DNA from: a virus
Lineage: Duplodnaviria > Heunggongvirae > Uroviricota > Caudoviricetes
Virus record (IMG/VR): IMGVR_UViG_2663762849_000004
Coordinates: 1-5,993 of that record
Length of the DNA: 5,993 nt
Reading direction: 5' to 3' (one strand)
Both the position numbers and the translations under genes were made by a program. Positions 1 through 5,993 of the stretch are shown one piece after another. Position 1 is the first letter of the stretch. The number at the start of each line of letters is the position of its first letter. Below the pieces are notes generated by a model. The model was not told the origin of the DNA and searched no databases. It was given only the letters and a program-made list of their open reading frames with translations.

Positions 1-436
1 CACCGAGCCGGAATTTCATGAAATCCCGGGAGGTAAACGGGCATTTCAGTTCAAGGCCGTTGCCGTCACTGCATAAACCATCGGGAGAGCAGGCGGTGCG
101 CATACTTTCGTCGCGATAGATGATCGGGGATTCAGTAACATTCACGCCGGAAGTGAACTCAAAGAGGGCTCTGGCGTCGTTCTCGTACTGTTTTCCCCAG
201 GCCAGCGCTTTAGCGTTAACTTCCGGAGCCACACCGGTGCAAACCTCAGCCAGCAGGGTGTGGAAGTAGGACATTTTCATGTCAGGCCATTTCTTTCCTG
301 AGCGGGGTTTTGCTATCACGTTGTGAACTTCTGAAGCGGTGATGACGCCGAGCCGTAATTTGTGCCACGCATCATCCCCCTGTTCGACAGCTCTCACGTC
401 GATCCCTGTACGTTGCAGGATAATGTCCGGTGTCAT
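1..436 (-). CDS. exo: Lambda-type 5'-3' exonuclease (Red-alpha), N-terminal 145 codons; gene continues past the left edge
   Basis: Translating the minus strand from ATG at 436..434 gives [50 protein letters not shown]..., which I recognise as the N-terminus of phage lambda Exo. The frame is open to the window edge. The start overlaps the bet stop as ATGA (433..436), as in lambda. Confidence 0.9.
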
Positions 437-1218
437 GCTGCTACCTTCTGCTCTGTGACTTTCTGTTTCAGGAATCCAAGAACCTTCACAGCTTCAGCCT
501 GTGTTAGTTCTGAAGATGTGTAAATGTTGCGGCGAAAAATCTGGGAACAGAGCGGCAACAGGTCGTCATCCCACGTTTTTTCCATGGAAGTAAGAAGGGC
601 GTTAATTTCCGACATGGTTTCTTCGTTAACCGGGGTGATGTCGCGTTCCGGCTGACGTTCTGTAGTATATGCAGTATTTTCGACAATACGCTCGGCTTCA
701 TCCTTGTCATAGATGCCAGCAAATCCGAAGGCCAGGCGAGCACACTGAATCATGGCTTTGTGCCGTAACATCCGTTTGGGATGCGACTGCCACGGTCCGG
801 TGATTTCTCTGCCTTCGCGGGTTTTGAATGGTGTGCGGCGACATTCATCCATCCACTCGGTAACGCAGATCGGGTGATTGCGATCTTTGCGGTAAATCCG
901 GCATGTACAGGACTCATTGTCCTGCTCAAAGTCCATGCCATCAAACTGCTGGTTTTCATTGATAATGCGGGACCAGCCATCAACGCCAACCACCGGAACG
1001 ATGCCGTTCTGCTTGTCAGGGAAGGCGTAAATTTCTTTCGTCCAGGGATTAAGGCCGTACTGGTTGGCGACGATCAACAATGCGATAAATTGCGCATCGC
1101 TGGCATCACCTTTAAATGCCGTCTGGCGAAGAGTGGTGATTAGTTCCTGTGGGTCGACAGAATCCATGCCGACACGTTCAGCCAGCTTCCCTGCCAGCGT
1201 TGCGAGTGCTGTACTCAT
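433..1218 (-). CDS. bet: Red-beta single-strand annealing protein (Bet), 261 aa
   Basis: The 261-aa translation ([44 protein letters not shown]...) matches lambda Bet over its whole length, with a few substitutions near the C-terminus. ATG start at 1218..1216; TGA stop at 435..433, overlapping the exo start. Confidence 0.95.
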
Positions 1219-1223
1219 CCGTT

Positions 1224-1520
1224 TTATACCTCTGAATCAATATTAATTTGGTGACGGGCGATGGTTTCAGCCATGTAGCGGATGTGTTCTGCCATGCGTT
1301 CCTGAAAATCGACATCGTCATCAAATGCACGGGAAATAGCTTTTTTGCTGGCCCCGTGACGTTGCAGATTATCGATGCATAGCGATTCAAACAGGTGTTG
1401 GGGCAGACCTTTTTCCAGGTCGTCTGCCAGCTCAGCTTCAGTTTCTTCACGGGCAATTTGCTGGTAGTGTCGTGCCCATGACTGCTCTTCAATGCGATCG
1501 GGGATAAGCCAGGCATTCAT
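1224..1520 (-). CDS. gam: Gam, host RecBCD nuclease inhibitor, short isoform only (98 aa)
   Basis: The translation [26 protein letters not shown]...[20 protein letters not shown] is clearly related to the lambda GamS region but diverged more than Bet or Exo. ATG at 1520..1518. An in-frame TAA two codons upstream excludes a long Gam isoform. TAA stop at 1226..1224, 5 nt from the bet start. Confidence 0.9.
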
Positions 1521-3589
1521 GATTTATCACCTCCGAAATTTTCAAGCCTGTTGGCAATCATGATGGCGATATCAGGGATTGCTGGCGCTGTGGCTATACA
1601 TGCGGGGTTGGCGCACAAACCATAGACGGCGGCAATCACGAGCTGTCTTTTCCAGTCGAGAGTTACTGGCTCAGAATTGGCGTCATCGCCGGACGTATCA
1701 CTGCCTGGCTCGTTCTGAACAACGGTTTCGCCCTCCTGAGCGGCATCAACAGAGTTTTCCTGAATGATCTTCTCCTCAGTTTGTGCTGAGTCTTCTCCAT
1801 CAGCGGCGTCATTTTCTCCAAAAGTTTCTGTGTAAGTGCTATCGCCCATTACCGCACTACAGTCAGGGCAGTTACCCCCGCCAGTCTGACCACAGACGCG
1901 GCAGTTTTTTTCCAGCTCCGGTTGCGCTACTGGCCCTGGCTGTTGCTCTTCTGGCCCGTTTTGTTGCGTATCCGGGCTGTTTTGTCCCGCTTCTGGGGCA
2001 ATTTGTTCCACTTTGGACTGATTCTGGTCCTCAGTGTCGCGAGTCTGGATCCCCTTCACCCACTTCGGATCAGCAGGGTTACTGATGCCTTCAACGAATT
2101 CTCCACGCGAGGCAGCCAGTAATTTGTCGGCATCGACTGGATTTTTTGGGGGGATGTTTTCCCTGGCTTTATTGAGTTCCTCCCTCAGTTCCTGGTATTT
2201 CGTTTCTACAGATGAGACATTTTCCAGTGATTGCGTGTCCTCATTATGTTTAACTGGAATTTCTTCCACTGATTCAGGCGCTGCCTGTTCATTAGCCATT
2301 GTGTCCGATGCTTGTTGCTTTTCTTCATCGCCATGTTTTCCTTCTGCTGTTCCGCGCTGCGGCATCGGTGCTGATGAGCGACCGCAGGCAATTTCCACGA
2401 TTTCCGGATCCGGGTTAGCGTGATCGGTTTCGGTCAACACTTTGTTGAGATATTCAGTCACGCGTGCCGGGATGGCCTCAATGCCGATTGGTGCTTCTTT
2501 CACGGAAGCCACCACAATGGCGCGGGAATAATCCAGCCCACCGGGCATGGCGATAAATTTGTCGCGAAAAACAGAAAAGGGCGGCTTATTCTCTGACACG
2601 ATTTCTTCAACGCGTTTTGCGTGTGCTGGGTGCAGGTTATAAATATCCACATCCATTGAACGGGCCAGAACGCCGGTGGCTACATCTCGTGCGAGTGATG
2701 TCTTATCATGTTTGAATCCTTCACCACGATCGGTAATATTTCCGCCGCCAGCGTTAGCACCGGAAGGCGTACGGGTAATGCCTGAAACATAATTTCCGTT
2801 CTGCCATTCTTTTGTCAGCAGGCCCTGATCAAGGTAGTCAGTTTTCATCCAGGTGGAAATGAACTTGTCGAATTCAGCCGGGCTGATGCGATGATTTGCA
2901 GAGTGGGGGAATGCTTTCCCTACAGATTCAGCCAGGCGACTAAGGTGATAGTTCGTCAGTTTATCCAGTTCATGATGCGCGGCGCGCACAGCAGTAAGCA
3001 GGCTCTGAAGGTAACTGTCCTCTGTGTCCATCTCCATACGGATCACGTTATTGCGTTGTTCTGGTGTGGCATGATGCCGGTATTTTCCATCTTCATCTTT
3101 GCTGAATAAGAAGAGGTGAAGGAAGCGATGAGTAAGGCTCAGAGTGGCGACGGGAATTTCACACTCAGAACAGTCATCGTCGCTGTCCGGGGATTCGCTT
3201 TTCTCCACATCATCCGGAATAGTTCCGTCCAGGTTATCGTTGTCATCGCCAGCAGTTGTGGCATCTTCACCGTTGATGTTGTCATCGAAGGGGATAGCCA
3301 TCATGGTGATGCCATCGTTACCGCCTTTTTCATAGCGGTTGCAGAATTCAGTATCAAACACGCCTTCCGGTGGAAGGTCATTCACAACGGGTAAATGGAC
3401 GCGGATGGGTTTTTTAAAATCCTCTTCGTCAAATCCGGCATCGTCCATTGCAGCAACACCGCGTGATATTGCAACCGATAATTTTTTTGCTGTGCGCCAG
3501 TAAAAACCACCTTTAATCCCAAGGCGTTTTCTGACTTTGTCATTTTTGGCTTCGTAATATAGTGCAATTTCTTCTTTATCAGCGTTCAT
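1517..3589 (-). CDS. Hypothetical 690-aa protein of unknown function: basic N-terminal region, acidic tract, central globular region, Q/E/P-rich low-complexity segment, CxxC-x7-CxxC motif, hydrophobic C-terminal tail
   Basis: A 2073-nt uninterrupted ORF on the same strand as the Red genes. ATG at 3589..3587 is preceded by GAGG 7 nt upstream. The TGA stop (1519..1517) overlaps the gam ATG as ATGA, implying co-transcription and translational coupling. Plus-strand ORFs inside this span are short antisense shadows. I recognise no family. Confidence 0.8.
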
Positions 3590-3681
3590 TGATAAACCTC
3601 ATAACCATTTTAAGGATGAACAAATTCCTGCCATTGCTGGCATTTTTAATCCGTTGGTATGGCGTTAATATGGCTGGCGGG

Positions 3682-3870
3682 TTATCCAGCCGGTGTTTCG
3701 TTATTCAGGTACAGCGATACTTTTTTTAACGGGAGGCATTCACCGGGGATTTTTTGTTCGTCCCTTACCTGAATGCAGGATGACTTACTGTCATAAATTC
3801 CGGTAATCACATTCTGCGGCTCACCCGTTATAAGAAAAACGGTCATTATCAGTGCAAACGCTGAAGTCAC
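3682..3870 (-). CDS. Hypothetical 62-aa protein with a hydrophobic N-terminal segment (MTSAFALIMTVFLITG...); GTG start
   Basis: ORF with GTG at 3870..3868 preceded by GGAGAA at about -8. The start overlaps the stop of the upstream ORF as GTGA (3867..3870). An alternative internal ATG at 3846 has no RBS. The short length keeps this call uncertain. Confidence 0.45.
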   Translation of the reverse strand: MTSAFALIMTVFLITGEPQNVITGIYDSKSSCIQVRDEQKIPGECLPLKKVSLYLNNETPAG

Positions 3871-4055
3871 TGCTGTTCTCCGATAATACCAAGTTCAAGA
3901 AGGGCAATTCTGGAAAGTATGGAATTATCATTGAGAAGATAAGGTTCATATTTTCTCATCTTAATGGCATCTTCAGTAAACTCCCGGTTACTGAGCAGAA
4001 CTCCAATATCAAAACAACCTTCAGACGTATTAACGTTTGGTAATAACGTTTCCAT
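3867..4055 (-). CDS. Hypothetical 62-aa protein (METLLPNVNTSEGCFDIGVLLSNREFTEDAIKMRKYEPYLLNDNSILSRIALLELGIIGEQQ)
   Basis: ATG at 4055..4053 with GAGGA 7 nt upstream. The TGA stop at 3869..3867 overlaps the next start. The six-frame track extends this frame to an ATG at 4202 (111 aa), but that extension has a poor RBS, runs through the inverted-repeat segment and has Arg/Cys/Gly/Pro-rich non-protein-like composition. Confidence 0.5.
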   Translation of the reverse strand: METLLPNVNTSEGCFDIGVLLSNREFTEDAIKMRKYEPYLLNDNSILSRIALLELGIIGEQQ

Positions 4056-4072
4056 TATCGCGTCCTCAACAA

Positions 4073-4222
4073 TGAATTTTGTGATGCAGTGCCTGGTGCC
4101 TCCAGGTGACGTTAACCAGTTAACAACTAACGCCGGGTCAGGGGACGATGACTTTCCGTGACATCCTGTCGGTTTAACTGTTCCGCGTGCGCATAGCCGC
4201 ATTCACCGCATCACAAAATTCA
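4073..4222. repeat. Pair of inverted repeats (15 bp perfect, 18/19 when extended) bounding a ~112-bp internal segment
   Basis: TGAATTTTGTGATGC at 4073..4087 is the exact reverse complement of GCATCACAAAATTCA at 4208..4222. Extended to 4073..4091 and 4204..4222 the arms match at 18 of 19 positions. The interior holds two GTTAAC sites 8 bp apart (4111..4116, 4119..4124) and a small CCTGG/CCAGG hairpin (4092..4106). Confidence 0.6.
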
Positions 4223-4267
4223 CTTTAAAAAGGGCGGACATCAGCAATCGGCAAACCGATGTCCGCC
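4221..4267 (-). terminator. Candidate rho-independent terminator for minus-strand transcripts
   Basis: A perfect 10-bp GC-rich stem (4233..4242 GGCGGACATC pairs with 4258..4267 GATGTCCGCC) with a 15-nt loop. On the minus strand the stem is followed directly by C-UUUUU-AAAGUGAAUUUUGUG (complement of 4232..4212). The plus-strand side has no U-tract. The loop is longer than typical. Confidence 0.45.
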
Positions 4268-4506
4268 AAGGGCTACACACAGCAATGTTGTTATTCACAA
4301 CCGGAAGCGCACGGTCGAAGAAATCTAACGACAAGCCTTCAATGGGAAAGAGTCTTCGCCGTGCACTTTCGTGTTGTACCCTGGCTTTCAGGGTAATGTC
4401 TGTTCAGTAAACTGAGAGTGCCGGAACTTACCCGTGTCCGGCGCACGATCTCCACCTCACCCGTGGAGAACTCCTCAACTACAAACCCCGTAAGGAGAGT
4501 GAGTTT

Positions 4507-4716
4507 ATGACACAAGAAGAAAAAGTGATGTTTCTGATGCGGCTGGCTGTCGATACCTACAACACACAATTCAGGGAGAAAGATATACCTCAAAAGGCAG
4601 TTCCTGCCGCGGTAGATAAGGGCGGTGCTATTGCCGTATTTTACGATGCATTTGAATCATTTTTTAATGAAAAACTCGACGCTGTTAGCGGCTTCGGAAC
4701 ATCGAGTAATAAATAA
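4507..4716 (+). CDS. Hypothetical 69-aa protein on the opposite strand to the rest of the operon
   Basis: ATG at 4507 is preceded by a strong RBS, TAAGGAGAG (4491..4499), 7 nt upstream. The ORF runs to TAA at 4714..4716. It converges on, and overlaps by 32 bp, the 3' end of the minus-strand gene 4685..5044. The competing minus-strand ORF 4339..4593 has junk-like composition. Confidence 0.45.
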   Translation: MTQEEKVMFLMRLAVDTYNTQFREKDIPQKAVPAAVDKGGAIAVFYDAFESFFNEKLDAVSGFGTSSNK

Positions 4717-5044
4717 CGTTCATTACGGTTCTTAAACAACAATCAGTGGGCTTGATGTTGTTCTTTTCAAGCTCACTTGCCATCACTTCCATTATTCTTG
4801 CACTTACACGAATTATTTGGTGGCTGTAAGCGATGCAACTGTCGCTGATATTGCTGTTTATTTCTATTACTTCATTTTCACCATTAGCATCAACTTCGGA
4901 TGCGCTGTTTTCATTATCCTGTTTCAGTGCTTTTTCTGCCATCTGGATGCGTGTCAGCGTTGCGGAATTTGGGCTAAGTCGATAAACCTGTCTGGCATCT
5001 TCCAGAAGCAGGGCGATAATGTGCTTCAGTTCTGTTTCGTTCAT
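4685..5044 (-). CDS. Hypothetical 119-aa protein (MNETELKHIIALLLEDARQVYRLSPNSATLTRIQMAEKALKQ...)
   Basis: ATG at 5044..5042 with GGAG 6 nt upstream. The track's 126-aa version starts at a TTG at 5065 that lies inside the RBS. No family recognised. Confidence 0.6.
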   Translation of the reverse strand: MNETELKHIIALLLEDARQVYRLSPNSATLTRIQMAEKALKQDNENSASEVDANGENEVIEINSNISDSCIAYSHQIIRVSARIMEVMASELEKNNIKPTDCCLRTVMNVIYYSMFRSR

Positions 5045-5075
5045 AGTTAACTCCGGTAGTTGCAATTTATTAATA

Positions 5076-5381
5076 TCAGGCGGTCAGCTCTTTAAGCTTC
5101 TGAACTGCTTTATTCATTTCATCCATACAGTCGATGAATTCGTCCAGTTTAAGCTGCATTTTTCCGGCGGCCTGAAGAATTTCAAGTTTTAAGGGCGCAA
5201 GTTTTTTGTTGAATGCATCATCTTCCTGGCGTTTTTTCTCCGCAATTTCGGCGGCTTTCAGCAATTCTTCAGCCTGTTTTCTGAGTATTTCTGGTGAAGG
5301 TGAAACTGCTTTGAGGTTATTCATTTCAGGTTCCTGTTGTTGCAGAATTAATTTGTTGCATTCTCTGCGTGAGCGTTTCAT
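5076..5381 (-). CDS. Hypothetical 101-aa protein, Lys/Glu/Ala/Leu-rich, predicted coiled coil
   Basis: ATG at 5381..5379 overlaps the upstream gene's TGA as ATGA (5378..5381). An alternative internal ATG at 5324 with AGGAA 6 nt upstream would give 82 aa. The sequence ...EILRKQAEELLKAAEIAEKKRQEDDAFNKKLAPLKLEILQAAGKMQLKLDEF... has a heptad-like charge pattern. Confidence 0.6.
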   Translation of the reverse strand: MKRSRRECNKLILQQQEPEMNNLKAVSPSPEILRKQAEELLKAAEIAEKKRQEDDAFNKKLAPLKLEILQAAGKMQLKLDEFIDCMDEMNKAVQKLKELTA

Positions 5382-5788
5382 TGCAGATTCGCACTTCTTG
5401 CAATAAATGGCTCTCCCGTCACGCTTGCTGGCATCTGAATAAAAATCATTGACTGATTTTGTCTGCCCGCATCTGGTACATAATTTTGATTGAAGGTCCT
5501 TAATGATTGTGACGTTTCCTTCCCGCTTGGGATATCCATATTTTTGTGGCGTAAAAAGGTTACTCCGTTACCAGAACCTTCTTTTCTGACCTTAAATACA
5601 ATGATGCTTTCCCGTTTATCGATAAAATCGATGAGCTGGTTTCTCTCCTTTCCTGACAGTTCGGCAAATGTCTTAACTTTTTTAGTAACCTCAGTAAGGC
5701 GAACGCCGTCAGGCATTTTTTCAACGAAGTTTTTAATCTCTGCAAGCGGACGCCATAATTTTTGCGGCAAAACTGAAGGCGTGGTCAT
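5378..5788 (-). CDS. Hypothetical 136-aa protein (MTTPSVLPQKLWRPLAEIKNFVEKMPDGVRLTEVTKKV...)
   Basis: ATG at 5788..5786 with GAGGTGA 5 nt upstream; the track's first codon is a TTG at 5791. Three nt separate it from the stop of the upstream partial ORF. No family recognised. Confidence 0.65.
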   Translation of the reverse strand: MTTPSVLPQKLWRPLAEIKNFVEKMPDGVRLTEVTKKVKTFAELSGKERNQLIDFIDKRESIIVFKVRKEGSGNGVTFLRHKNMDIPSGKETSQSLRTFNQNYVPDAGRQNQSMIFIQMPASVTGEPFIARSANLQ

Positions 5789-5791
5789 CAA

Positions 5792-5993
5792 TCACCTCGC
5801 CGTCAGTTGTTTTGATTTCCGGTAGCCTGCCGCGTAAATGGCTACGTTTGGAAGACATACACCAGTTTCTGGTTGCTTATGTCCAAACTCATTCGCGTAC
5901 ACAATGGCTGCTCGCTCCAGATTGCGTCTGTATTCTTTCTGTTGCCAGATCACGTCCTGTGCCATGAACTTAATTGGCTTAGCGTCTTCTATG
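5792..5993 (-). CDS. 3' end of a minus-strand ORF entering from the right edge (...MAQDVIWQQKEYRRNLERAAIVYANEFGHKQPETGVCLPNVAIYAAGYRKSKQLTAR)
   Basis: This frame is open from the window edge to TGA at 5794..5792, which sits inside the RBS of the next gene. An internal ATG at 5965 lacks a convincing RBS, so the gene probably starts outside the window. Confidence 0.5.
   Translation of the reverse strand, partial: IEDAKPIKFMAQDVIWQQKEYRRNLERAAIVYANEFGHKQPETGVCLPNVAIYAAGYRKSKQLTAR

Follow-up and report, generated by a model that had tools for sequence, protein, structure and literature searches.

A conserved reverse-oriented small gene beside a putative divergent DicF locus in a lambdoid early-left operon

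In phage lambda, the gene sieB (superinfection exclusion B) encodes a membrane protein; it is also carried by P22 and Rac, and the lambda system includes a self-protecting product. Pairs of convergent units that overlap at their 3' ends are likewise known among type I toxin–antitoxin systems of Bacillus subtilis prophages (e.g. txpA/RatA and bsrG/SR4). [quoted passage not shown] DicF is excised from the polycistronic transcript of this operon, RNase III producing a species of 190 nucleotides (nt) and RNase E a 53-nt form (PMC10448788). In K-12, 3' residues of DicF act on ftsZ and pykA and 5' residues on xylR (PMC5069750), and both DicF and DicB are toxic when expressed (PMC5069750; PMC10448788). 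An earlier search of phage databases found neither DicF nor DicB (PMC5069750). Here, we analyze a 5,993-nt stretch of viral DNA (Caudoviricetes; IMG/VR record IMGVR_UViG_2663762849_000004, positions 1 to 5,993; hereafter the window), and specifically a plus-strand open reading frame (ORF) of 69 codons at 4507..4716, the untranslated DNA upstream of it, and the minus-strand gene whose 3' end it overlaps.

The original prediction for this DNA took the 240 nt ahead of the small ORF as a structured leader of that ORF, and a hairpin beyond it as the terminator of the opposing operon. We lean towards a different arrangement, which we hold to be probable though far from secure: a real small gene lies in a portable cassette, the supposed leader and terminator are parts of a divergent DicF locus, and the gene follows a sieB-like logic of expression in the lysogen. 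What survives of the earlier interpretation is therefore a real, conserved, and convergent gene, while its leader and terminator are reassigned to DicF on the minus strand.

Comparison with relatives indicates that the 69-codon frame is a genuine, rare prophage gene, whose family is confined to prophages of Enterobacterales. The strong ribosome-binding site that had been noted is present as AAGGAG (4492–4497), 9 nt ahead of the ATG, and residues 1–69 of the small protein match positions 1–69 of the PHROG 2605 profile (E = 2.8e-44). On a 99.6%-identical chromosome, PGAP calls the small gene as a coding sequence (CDS) and calls no other plus-strand CDS in the early-left block, in agreement with the claim that this is the only well-supported gene on its strand. 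In a coding test across relatives, which had been proposed as a check, the frame is open in all 41 IMG/VR loci that encode a relative. The pairwise ratio of non-synonymous to synonymous substitution rates (dN/dS) is 0.38–0.45. Among window-type copies there are 12 segregating sites, 7 synonymous and 5 non-synonymous; a few database variants (P0007 and P0004) are frameshifted or shortened.

The homologues measure 58–69 amino acids (aa), share 31–57% identity, and come from prophages of seven enterobacterial genera, with hosts that include E. coli, E. albertii, Klebsiella, Citrobacter, Buttiauxella, Atlantibacter, and Edwardsiella (among them Edwardsiella phage EPP-1). At these levels of identity the distant homologues still keep the open frame, the start codon, and a Shine-Dalgarno sequence. 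The core of the N-terminal motif, VMFLMRLAV, is invariant, and the codons that spell it vary by lineage (GTG/GTA/GTT, CTG/CTT/TTA, and CGG/CGA/CGC). Because amino acids are conserved through synonymous change, the small protein itself appears to be under selection.

Word-indexed and exhaustive profile searches delimit this narrow family; a profile search of 1.8 billion protein representatives returned 19 members, all of 37–94 aa except for one 834-aa repeat-like match, and gave no link to a named family. Searches of Pfam, NCBIfam, PADLOC, and PDB sequences produced no match that bears on function, and the RefSeq accessions are mentioned in no paper found by our literature search. AlphaFold2 predicts two helices, residues 3–24 and 38–63, with a variable linker between them (predicted local distance difference test score, pLDDT, of 68). 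A Foldseek comparison of the AlphaFold2 models, which are of no more than moderate confidence (pLDDT 68 and 66), with viral and PDB libraries returned nothing with E < 1.

The small gene is the reverse-oriented half of a compact and portable cassette, whose other half is the C-terminal domain, ~45 aa long, of the convergent partner gene. The 32-bp overlap reported for the two genes is exact, and in every lineage examined the small ORF and its partner overlap by 23–36 bp, always convergently. The partner domain (consensus lliISs.lLe.mkSELe..giKPTp.nLR.VM.iI..sLP) is found on five unrelated N-terminal regions (118, 119, 175, 177, and 201 aa), and as a stand-alone protein of 57–64 aa in Klebsiella, Salmonella, and some E. 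coli. Stand-alone pairs lie directly downstream of a strong pL-like promoter beside a cI-type repressor (e.g. TTGACA-16-CATAAT in locus L140), and in Klebsiella-type relatives the partner of the small ORF is the first gene after the pL-like promoter—i.e. it takes the position of N. The place of such a stand-alone pair is that of N and sieB in lambda. The same cassette also occurs in phages with no DicF or DicB nearby, and the window phage has it right at the upstream boundary of the long, untranslated DicF precursor. Across seven or more diverged lineages, strict co-occurrence links the small ORF to the partner domain, and the two diverge in parallel. This strict linkage suggests either cooperation or antagonism between the two proteins, the small protein probably acting with the partner domain or against it.

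The DNA upstream of the small gene had been said to lack a good coding frame, to hold two named hairpins, and to be structured. All of this is borne out: close relatives differ by 1–3-nt indels within the 239-nt stretch, the hairpins are present (H1 at 4449–4469 and H2 at 4420–4442), and the stretch folds better than shuffled sequences. What does not hold is that the region is the small gene's own leader. Positions 4296..4490 are ~80% identical to the untranslated ydfC–dicF spacer of the K-12 Qin prophage, and among 5426 complete E. coli genomes 4110 (~76%) carry this spacer, nearly all of them without the ORF, which occurs in 65. Conversely, distant members of the small-ORF family lack the spacer; upstream they have another block of 75 nt that is conserved. 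When the window was searched against Rfam with E values up to 1, the sole matches were DicF and STnc100, each sub-threshold and on the minus strand, and none was to a plus-strand leader. A cis-regulatory leader would co-occur with its gene and be selected on the strand of that gene; this stretch does neither. As such, the 240-nt "leader" is, to judge from these comparisons, the 5' part of a DicF precursor, and its folding appears to be selected in the minus-sense RNA. On account of the same 1–3-nt indels, neither a minus-strand 84-aa ORF at 4339..4593 nor any of the short ORFs on the plus strand within 4259..4510 counts as a gene.

The strand assignment comes from the pattern of substitutions. 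On the plus strand, the 239-nt stretch folds at −88.7 kcal/mol (z = −5.3, with 0 of 200 dinucleotide shuffles as good), and the minus strand reaches a comparable z = −4.7. Since both strands fold about equally well, folding energy alone cannot assign the strand. A consensus structure, built with RNAalifold on an alignment of 44 distinct variants and accompanied by pair counts, contains hairpin H2, a short hairpin at ~4381–4392, and a long interrupted helix. The core of this helix pairs ~4358–4377 with 4296–4314, and in the window it extends to 4354–4379 with 4296–4321. It is ~24 bp long, and at least 14 bp of it are found in the minimum-energy fold of 43 of the 44 variants, usually as 21–29 pairs. 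Read in the minus sense, 99.4% of the long-helix cells of the alignment are canonical, including 57 G·U cells; because these read as A·C on the plus strand, the canonical share there falls to 91.1%. Seven pairs of the helix vary, and all of them remain paired in the minus sense; with only one full compensatory change, the support for that sense is real but modest.

The six pairs of H2 are essentially invariant in the 44 variants and its loop is variable. H1 is conserved whether or not a locus carries the plus-strand ORF; loci of the L136, L066, and L098 type have a different hairpin in its place. A local GNRA hairpin, CACGAAAGTG, was also considered as a covarying element; its inclusion in the long helix explains it better.

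The position of the helix agrees with what is known of DicF processing. In the K-12 locus (L015), the DicF match starts at 1374, and if the 190-nt species shares the 3' end of DicF, as we assumed for this count, it starts at ~1511; the arm of the helix lies at 1501–1512. From this arithmetic, we infer that the K-12 RNase III product's 5' end falls within the long helix's 3' arm. The conserved interrupted helix is thus a candidate for the double-stranded RNase III site expected upstream in a DicF precursor. Published work on the targets of RNase III mentions DicF just in passing.

The minus-strand terminator hairpin that had been described does exist, with its stem and U-tract spanning 4227–4267; what had gone unrecognized is that it forms part of a DicF-like sRNA (Rfam RF00039). 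Specifically, a 10-bp G+C-rich stem (4258–4267 with 4233–4242) is followed by a U-tract (4231–4227) on the minus strand, which is the form of a DicF 3' end. The location is also that of DicF: the element is untranslated, lies directly upstream of the dicB 5' untranslated region (UTR) and dicB, and has flanks that align with K-12, the alignment to the K-12 dicB 5' UTR downstream being near-perfect. The RF00039 score of 29.5 bits is nevertheless below the gathering score of 48; for comparison, the K-12 allele scores 76.7, that of O157 43.5, and that of L006 45.9 bits.

The allele is also shortened. Compared with K-12, the window is missing 90 + 23 nt between helix and hairpin, and with them both the RNase E site and the canonical 5' seed, and the distance from the helix to the terminator tail is 65 nt rather than ~180. 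The canonical 5' region, UUUCUGGUGACGUU after an A/U-rich RNase E site, has been deleted or replaced; the 5' part now reads UGUGUGUAGCCCUU, and the remaining sequence runs ...GAAUAACAACAUUGCUGUGUGUAGCCCUU before a different stem-loop. The "terminator" is therefore best read, from its sequence and surroundings, as the hairpin of a DicF allele without the canonical RNase E site and 5' seed. If this allele were cut by RNase III as in K-12, its product would be ~80 nt long (4306 to 4227). Both parts of DicF that pair with targets, 3' and 5', differ in the window allele. In an RNAduplex comparison of DicF alleles with the ftsZ translation start, no allele rose above shuffles, and the known K-12 DicF was not separated either (z = −1.6).

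Variation of this kind is found among other prophages. The 5' seed and the loop of the DicF family vary independently (window 4232..4306; loci L015, L016, L011, L048, and L098), and at least three seed types can be told apart, UUUCUGGUGACG, UGUGUAG(C/U), and AUGUUGAUUACC. The window carries a short form without the RNase E site, and most alleles score below the Rfam gathering score.

The edge of the precursor is also a site at which other reverse genes are found. At the same junction (homologous to window ~4490–4510), other prophages carry four more unrelated, reverse-oriented small ORFs, of PHROGs 10348, 18692, 10133, and 4987 (L016:1709–1942, L135, L136, and L066), most of them also tail-to-tail with an operon-sense gene. 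All five PHROGs, including 2605, are annotated as "unknown function" and are mutually unrelated in sequence, and three of the five families share an identical CAGGAGGGTGA Shine-Dalgarno flank that extends to a few bases before the ATG. The shared edge and flank suggest that the flank supplies translation signals, and possibly transcription signals. Among 87 junctions, a Shine-Dalgarno flank leads into a reverse small ORF in 59 and into a reverse start that is open for <55 codons in 3; it is absent from all 25 junctions without an ORF. In a separate set of 59 spacer-bearing loci, picked by dicB allele alone, 18 carry a reverse small ORF. The hotspot and the cassette are the sole elements of this work that we consider new, and mildly so.

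As to expression, the geometry dictates that any early-left transcript that reaches the hairpin at 4227–4267 is antisense to the entire small gene, as had been pointed out. By analogy with lambda sieB, the small gene would probably be transcribed at a low level from its own weak promoter while pL is repressed. After induction, N-antiterminated convergent transcription from pL, which yields a full-length antisense RNA, would shut it down through transcriptional interference and cleavage of the duplex by RNase III.

A number of observations weigh against the arrangement that we favor. No plus-strand promoter with at least 9 of 12 consensus positions is found in 4001–4520, and the top-scoring candidate, CTTTCA-17-TAAACT with its end at 4413, does not rise above background in either the consensus or the weight-matrix scan. 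Where Klebsiella/Edwardsiella-type loci have a conserved, extended −10-like TGGTATCTT ahead of the ORF, the window has TGGAGAACT. The small gene was left unannotated in the two closest phage records, PhiR5_2 and phiSTEC1589-Stx1c, its dN/dS of ~0.4 points to constraint that is merely moderate, and no homology or fold match supports any function for its product. For the DicF precursor, the structure of a single sequence folds about as well on either strand, and covariation in the helix is modest: a single pair is fully compensated, and six further changes are one-sided, of the G·U kind.

The 75-nt block of the distant loci (L054, L056, L057, and L140–L146) is conserved as GCCTGTCTTTTCACCACATCAGGCTCGGTGGTATCTTGG...CCAAGA immediately upstream of the small ORF. 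It contains a −35-like TTCACC, a 16-nt spacer, and the extended −10-like element, and the sequences further upstream are unrelated. The block is a candidate promoter of the small gene in Klebsiella/Edwardsiella-type phages.

Strict co-occurrence and parallel divergence in seven or more lineages would also be expected if the two proteins were a cognate pair, of the exclusion and escape or the toxin and antidote kind, in which the small protein binds the C-terminal domain of its partner, the overlap merely links alleles, and antisense effects are incidental. A domain that is modular, being fused to unrelated N-termini or standing alone, and a position that matches lambda sieB would both suit such a pair. 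However, neither protein matches the defense or toxin–antitoxin models of PADLOC or shows a hydrophobic toxin-like segment when its sequence is read, and physical overlap of the genes could by itself explain their co-occurrence; we regard this explanation as rather unlikely. For the upstream DNA, the competing view is that 4268..4506 is a cis-acting structured 5' leader (an attenuator, a riboswitch-like element, or a stabilizer) with a promoter at or before 4268. The strong plus-strand fold (z = −5.3), the hairpin at 4377–4395 that is terminator-like on the plus strand, and the five unrelated reverse ORFs that begin at the same edge, three of them with the CAGGAGGGTGA flank, can all be cited for it. 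Yet thousands of genomes conserve the region in the absence of a plus-strand ORF, it is only the minus sense that tolerates G·U substitutions, the more distant homologues of the ORF carry another block upstream, and the plus strand shows neither an Rfam match nor a consensus promoter. On this balance, such a leader seems distinctly improbable.

Of two further readings, one treats the plus-strand transcript mainly as an RNA. It would pair in the lysogen with leaky early-left read-through and trigger cleavage by RNase III, so that the toxic DicF-like RNA and DicB stay silent, with a secondary role left to the peptide. The ORF does lie directly upstream, in the sense of the operon, of the DicF precursor and dicB, and expressed DicF and DicB are toxic (PMC5069750; PMC10448788), but amino acid conservation with synonymous change indicates selection on protein, and the cassette also exists in phages with no DicF or DicB nearby. 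This makes a predominantly RNA-based role very improbable. More skeptically, the 69-codon frame could be an unexpressed chance ORF antisense to an untranslated stretch, and the lack of annotation in PhiR5_2 and phiSTEC1589-Stx1c, the promoter scans without result, and the frameshifted or shortened variants P0007 and P0004 are what one would then see. By contrast, the frame, start, and Shine-Dalgarno sequence are kept at 31–57% aa identity in seven genera, the motif is invariant under synonymous substitution, and the Shine-Dalgarno flank is never seen without a reverse ORF start behind it; a chance frame is scarcely credible. One could also join several of these ideas and see the DicF-precursor edge as a docking site for interchangeable reverse small-protein cassettes, at which the precursor DNA serves both strands: as an RNase III/DicF processing platform in the minus sense, and as promoter and 5' UTR of the resident cassette in the plus sense. 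Small proteins of the lysogen and toxic DicF/DicB would then be switched reciprocally by sense–antisense pairing, and each small protein would be the cognate partner (exclusion/escape) of the convergent C-terminal domain. So broad a joint reading is speculative, and we think it unlikely in full. The arrangement we favor, i.e. a small gene in a portable cassette at a divergent DicF locus, is the one retained below, and Table 1 lists the features of the locus.

Table 1. Positions of the small gene, its convergent partner, and the DicF-like locus in the window
Feature	Position	Strand	Basis
Small gene, 69 aa, ATG start, predicted two-helix protein, PHROG 2605, WP_000189937.1	4507..4716	+	Profile match, PGAP, conservation
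Shine-Dalgarno AAGGAGAG of the small gene	4492..4499	+	Read from sequence
Convergent partner gene, 119 aa, PHROG 2982	4685..5044	-	PHROG match
C-terminal domain of the partner, ~45-46 aa	about 4688..4825	-	Conserved across unrelated N-termini
Coding-sequence overlap, 32 bp, tail-to-tail	4685..4716	both	ORF coordinates
Putative 5' part of DicF precursor, homologue of K-12 ydfC-dicF spacer (formerly "structured leader")	4296..4490	-	Alignment
Hairpin H1, TCTCCAC 4449-4455 / GTGGAGA 4463-4469	4449..4469	-	Read from sequence
Hairpin H2, GCCGGA 4420-4425 / TCCGGC 4437-4442	4420..4442	-	Read from sequence
Long helix, 5' arm, candidate RNase III substrate	4354..4379	-	Pairs with 4296..4321
Long helix, 3' arm	4296..4321	-	Holds K-12-homologous 5' end of 190-nt RNase III product
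DicF-like sRNA body and terminator hairpin (formerly "terminator")	4232..4281	-	Rfam RF00039, 29.5 bits, E = 0.002
dicB 5' UTR, strongly conserved relative to K-12	4056..4231	-	Alignment
dicB, 62 aa, next operon gene	3867..4055	-	Pfam DicB, 3.7e-38
Two ORFs of the split PHROG 2539 gene	5378..5791 and 5076..5381	-	Comparison with PhiR5_2

The minus strand of the window reads as a lambdoid early-left operon of the pL/dicB type, according to PHROG and Pfam matches and near-identical records. Its order is N, two genes, a long UTR with the DicF-like sRNA, dicB, ydfD, recE, gam, and bet. N, DicB, DUF1482/YdfD, and RecE were identified by Pfam and PHROG matches, and gam and bet were assigned from the annotation of near-identical records. 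Only the C-terminal part of N is included, as the gene runs past the end of the window; it is followed by a PHROG 2539 gene that is split by a frameshift and then by the 119-aa partner gene, between which and dicB there are ~630 nt without a minus-strand gene. Two phages, PhiR5_2 and phiSTEC1589-Stx1c, carry near-identical DNA, as do 65 of the 5426 complete E. coli genomes.

Several side observations concern this setting. The split of the PHROG 2539 gene, which in PhiR5_2 encodes 237 aa, results from a 1-nt deletion at ~5545 in a run of A (A6 to A5) and yields two ORFs; either the prophage is decaying and this gene is a pseudogene, or the homopolymer was misread in sequencing. PV340546.1 (PhiR5_2) and PQ600364.1 (phiSTEC1589-Stx1c, an Stx1c phage) are complete phage genomes with a DicF-like region upstream of a Kil-type FtsZ-inhibitor gene. 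A KilR-type gene thus takes the place of dicB in both records, and the FtsZ-inhibitor slot is mosaic. The dicB 5' UTR (4023..4234, minus strand) has a sub-threshold resemblance to Rfam STnc100 (27 bits, as compared with 34 bits in K-12), and this Salmonella sRNA candidate may be a homologous prophage UTR.

These results matter for annotation, in that a plausible leader and terminator can be re-read as an sRNA of the DicF family whose allele is missed at the Rfam gathering score. Because prophage DicF alleles swap seeds and loops, target sets derived from K-12 need not hold in other strains, which is relevant to pathogenic E. coli that carry several DicF copies. The cassette and the reverse-gene hotspot offer candidates, identified by sequence, for sieB-type functions expressed in lysogens.

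Compared with known systems, the downstream part of the locus is closest to the Qin dicBF operon of K-12 (ydfABC, a UTR with dicF, dicB, and ydfD). The downstream order is the same, including the conserved dicB 5' UTR and a ydfD-like gene, and the Qin spacer, ~80% identical to that of the window, contains the helix to which the 190-nt RNase III cut maps. Unlike Qin, the window has a pL operon of the N-dependent, lambda type that includes bet, gam, and a recE-like gene; the 119-aa gene stands in place of ydfC, and the head of the spacer holds an inserted gene in reverse orientation. The DicF alleles also differ, that of the window being without the 113 nt that include the RNase E site and the UUUCUGGUGACG seed (29.5 vs 76.7 bits).

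The convergent pair itself resembles type I toxin–antitoxin systems in that two units overlap at their 3' ends, with scope for an RNA duplex and RNase III cleavage. It differs from them because both partners are conserved protein-coding genes, with no small hydrophobic toxin and no PADLOC match. The nearest parallel for the small gene is lambda sieB (34482..35036, plus strand), which lies within the pL operon in reverse orientation and adjoins the 3' end of N. The products are distinct: no homology of the small protein to SieB was detected in Pfam, NCBIfam, or PADLOC, and the lambda SieB CDS has 555 nt (~184 aa), whereas members of the small-gene family have 58–69 aa and look soluble. In position, the two are alike. 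Both lie on the strand opposite to the early-left operon, tail-to-tail with a gene transcribed from pL, and the small gene is, as such, a reverse-oriented accessory gene of the early-left operon, a class whose classical precedent is sieB of lambda.

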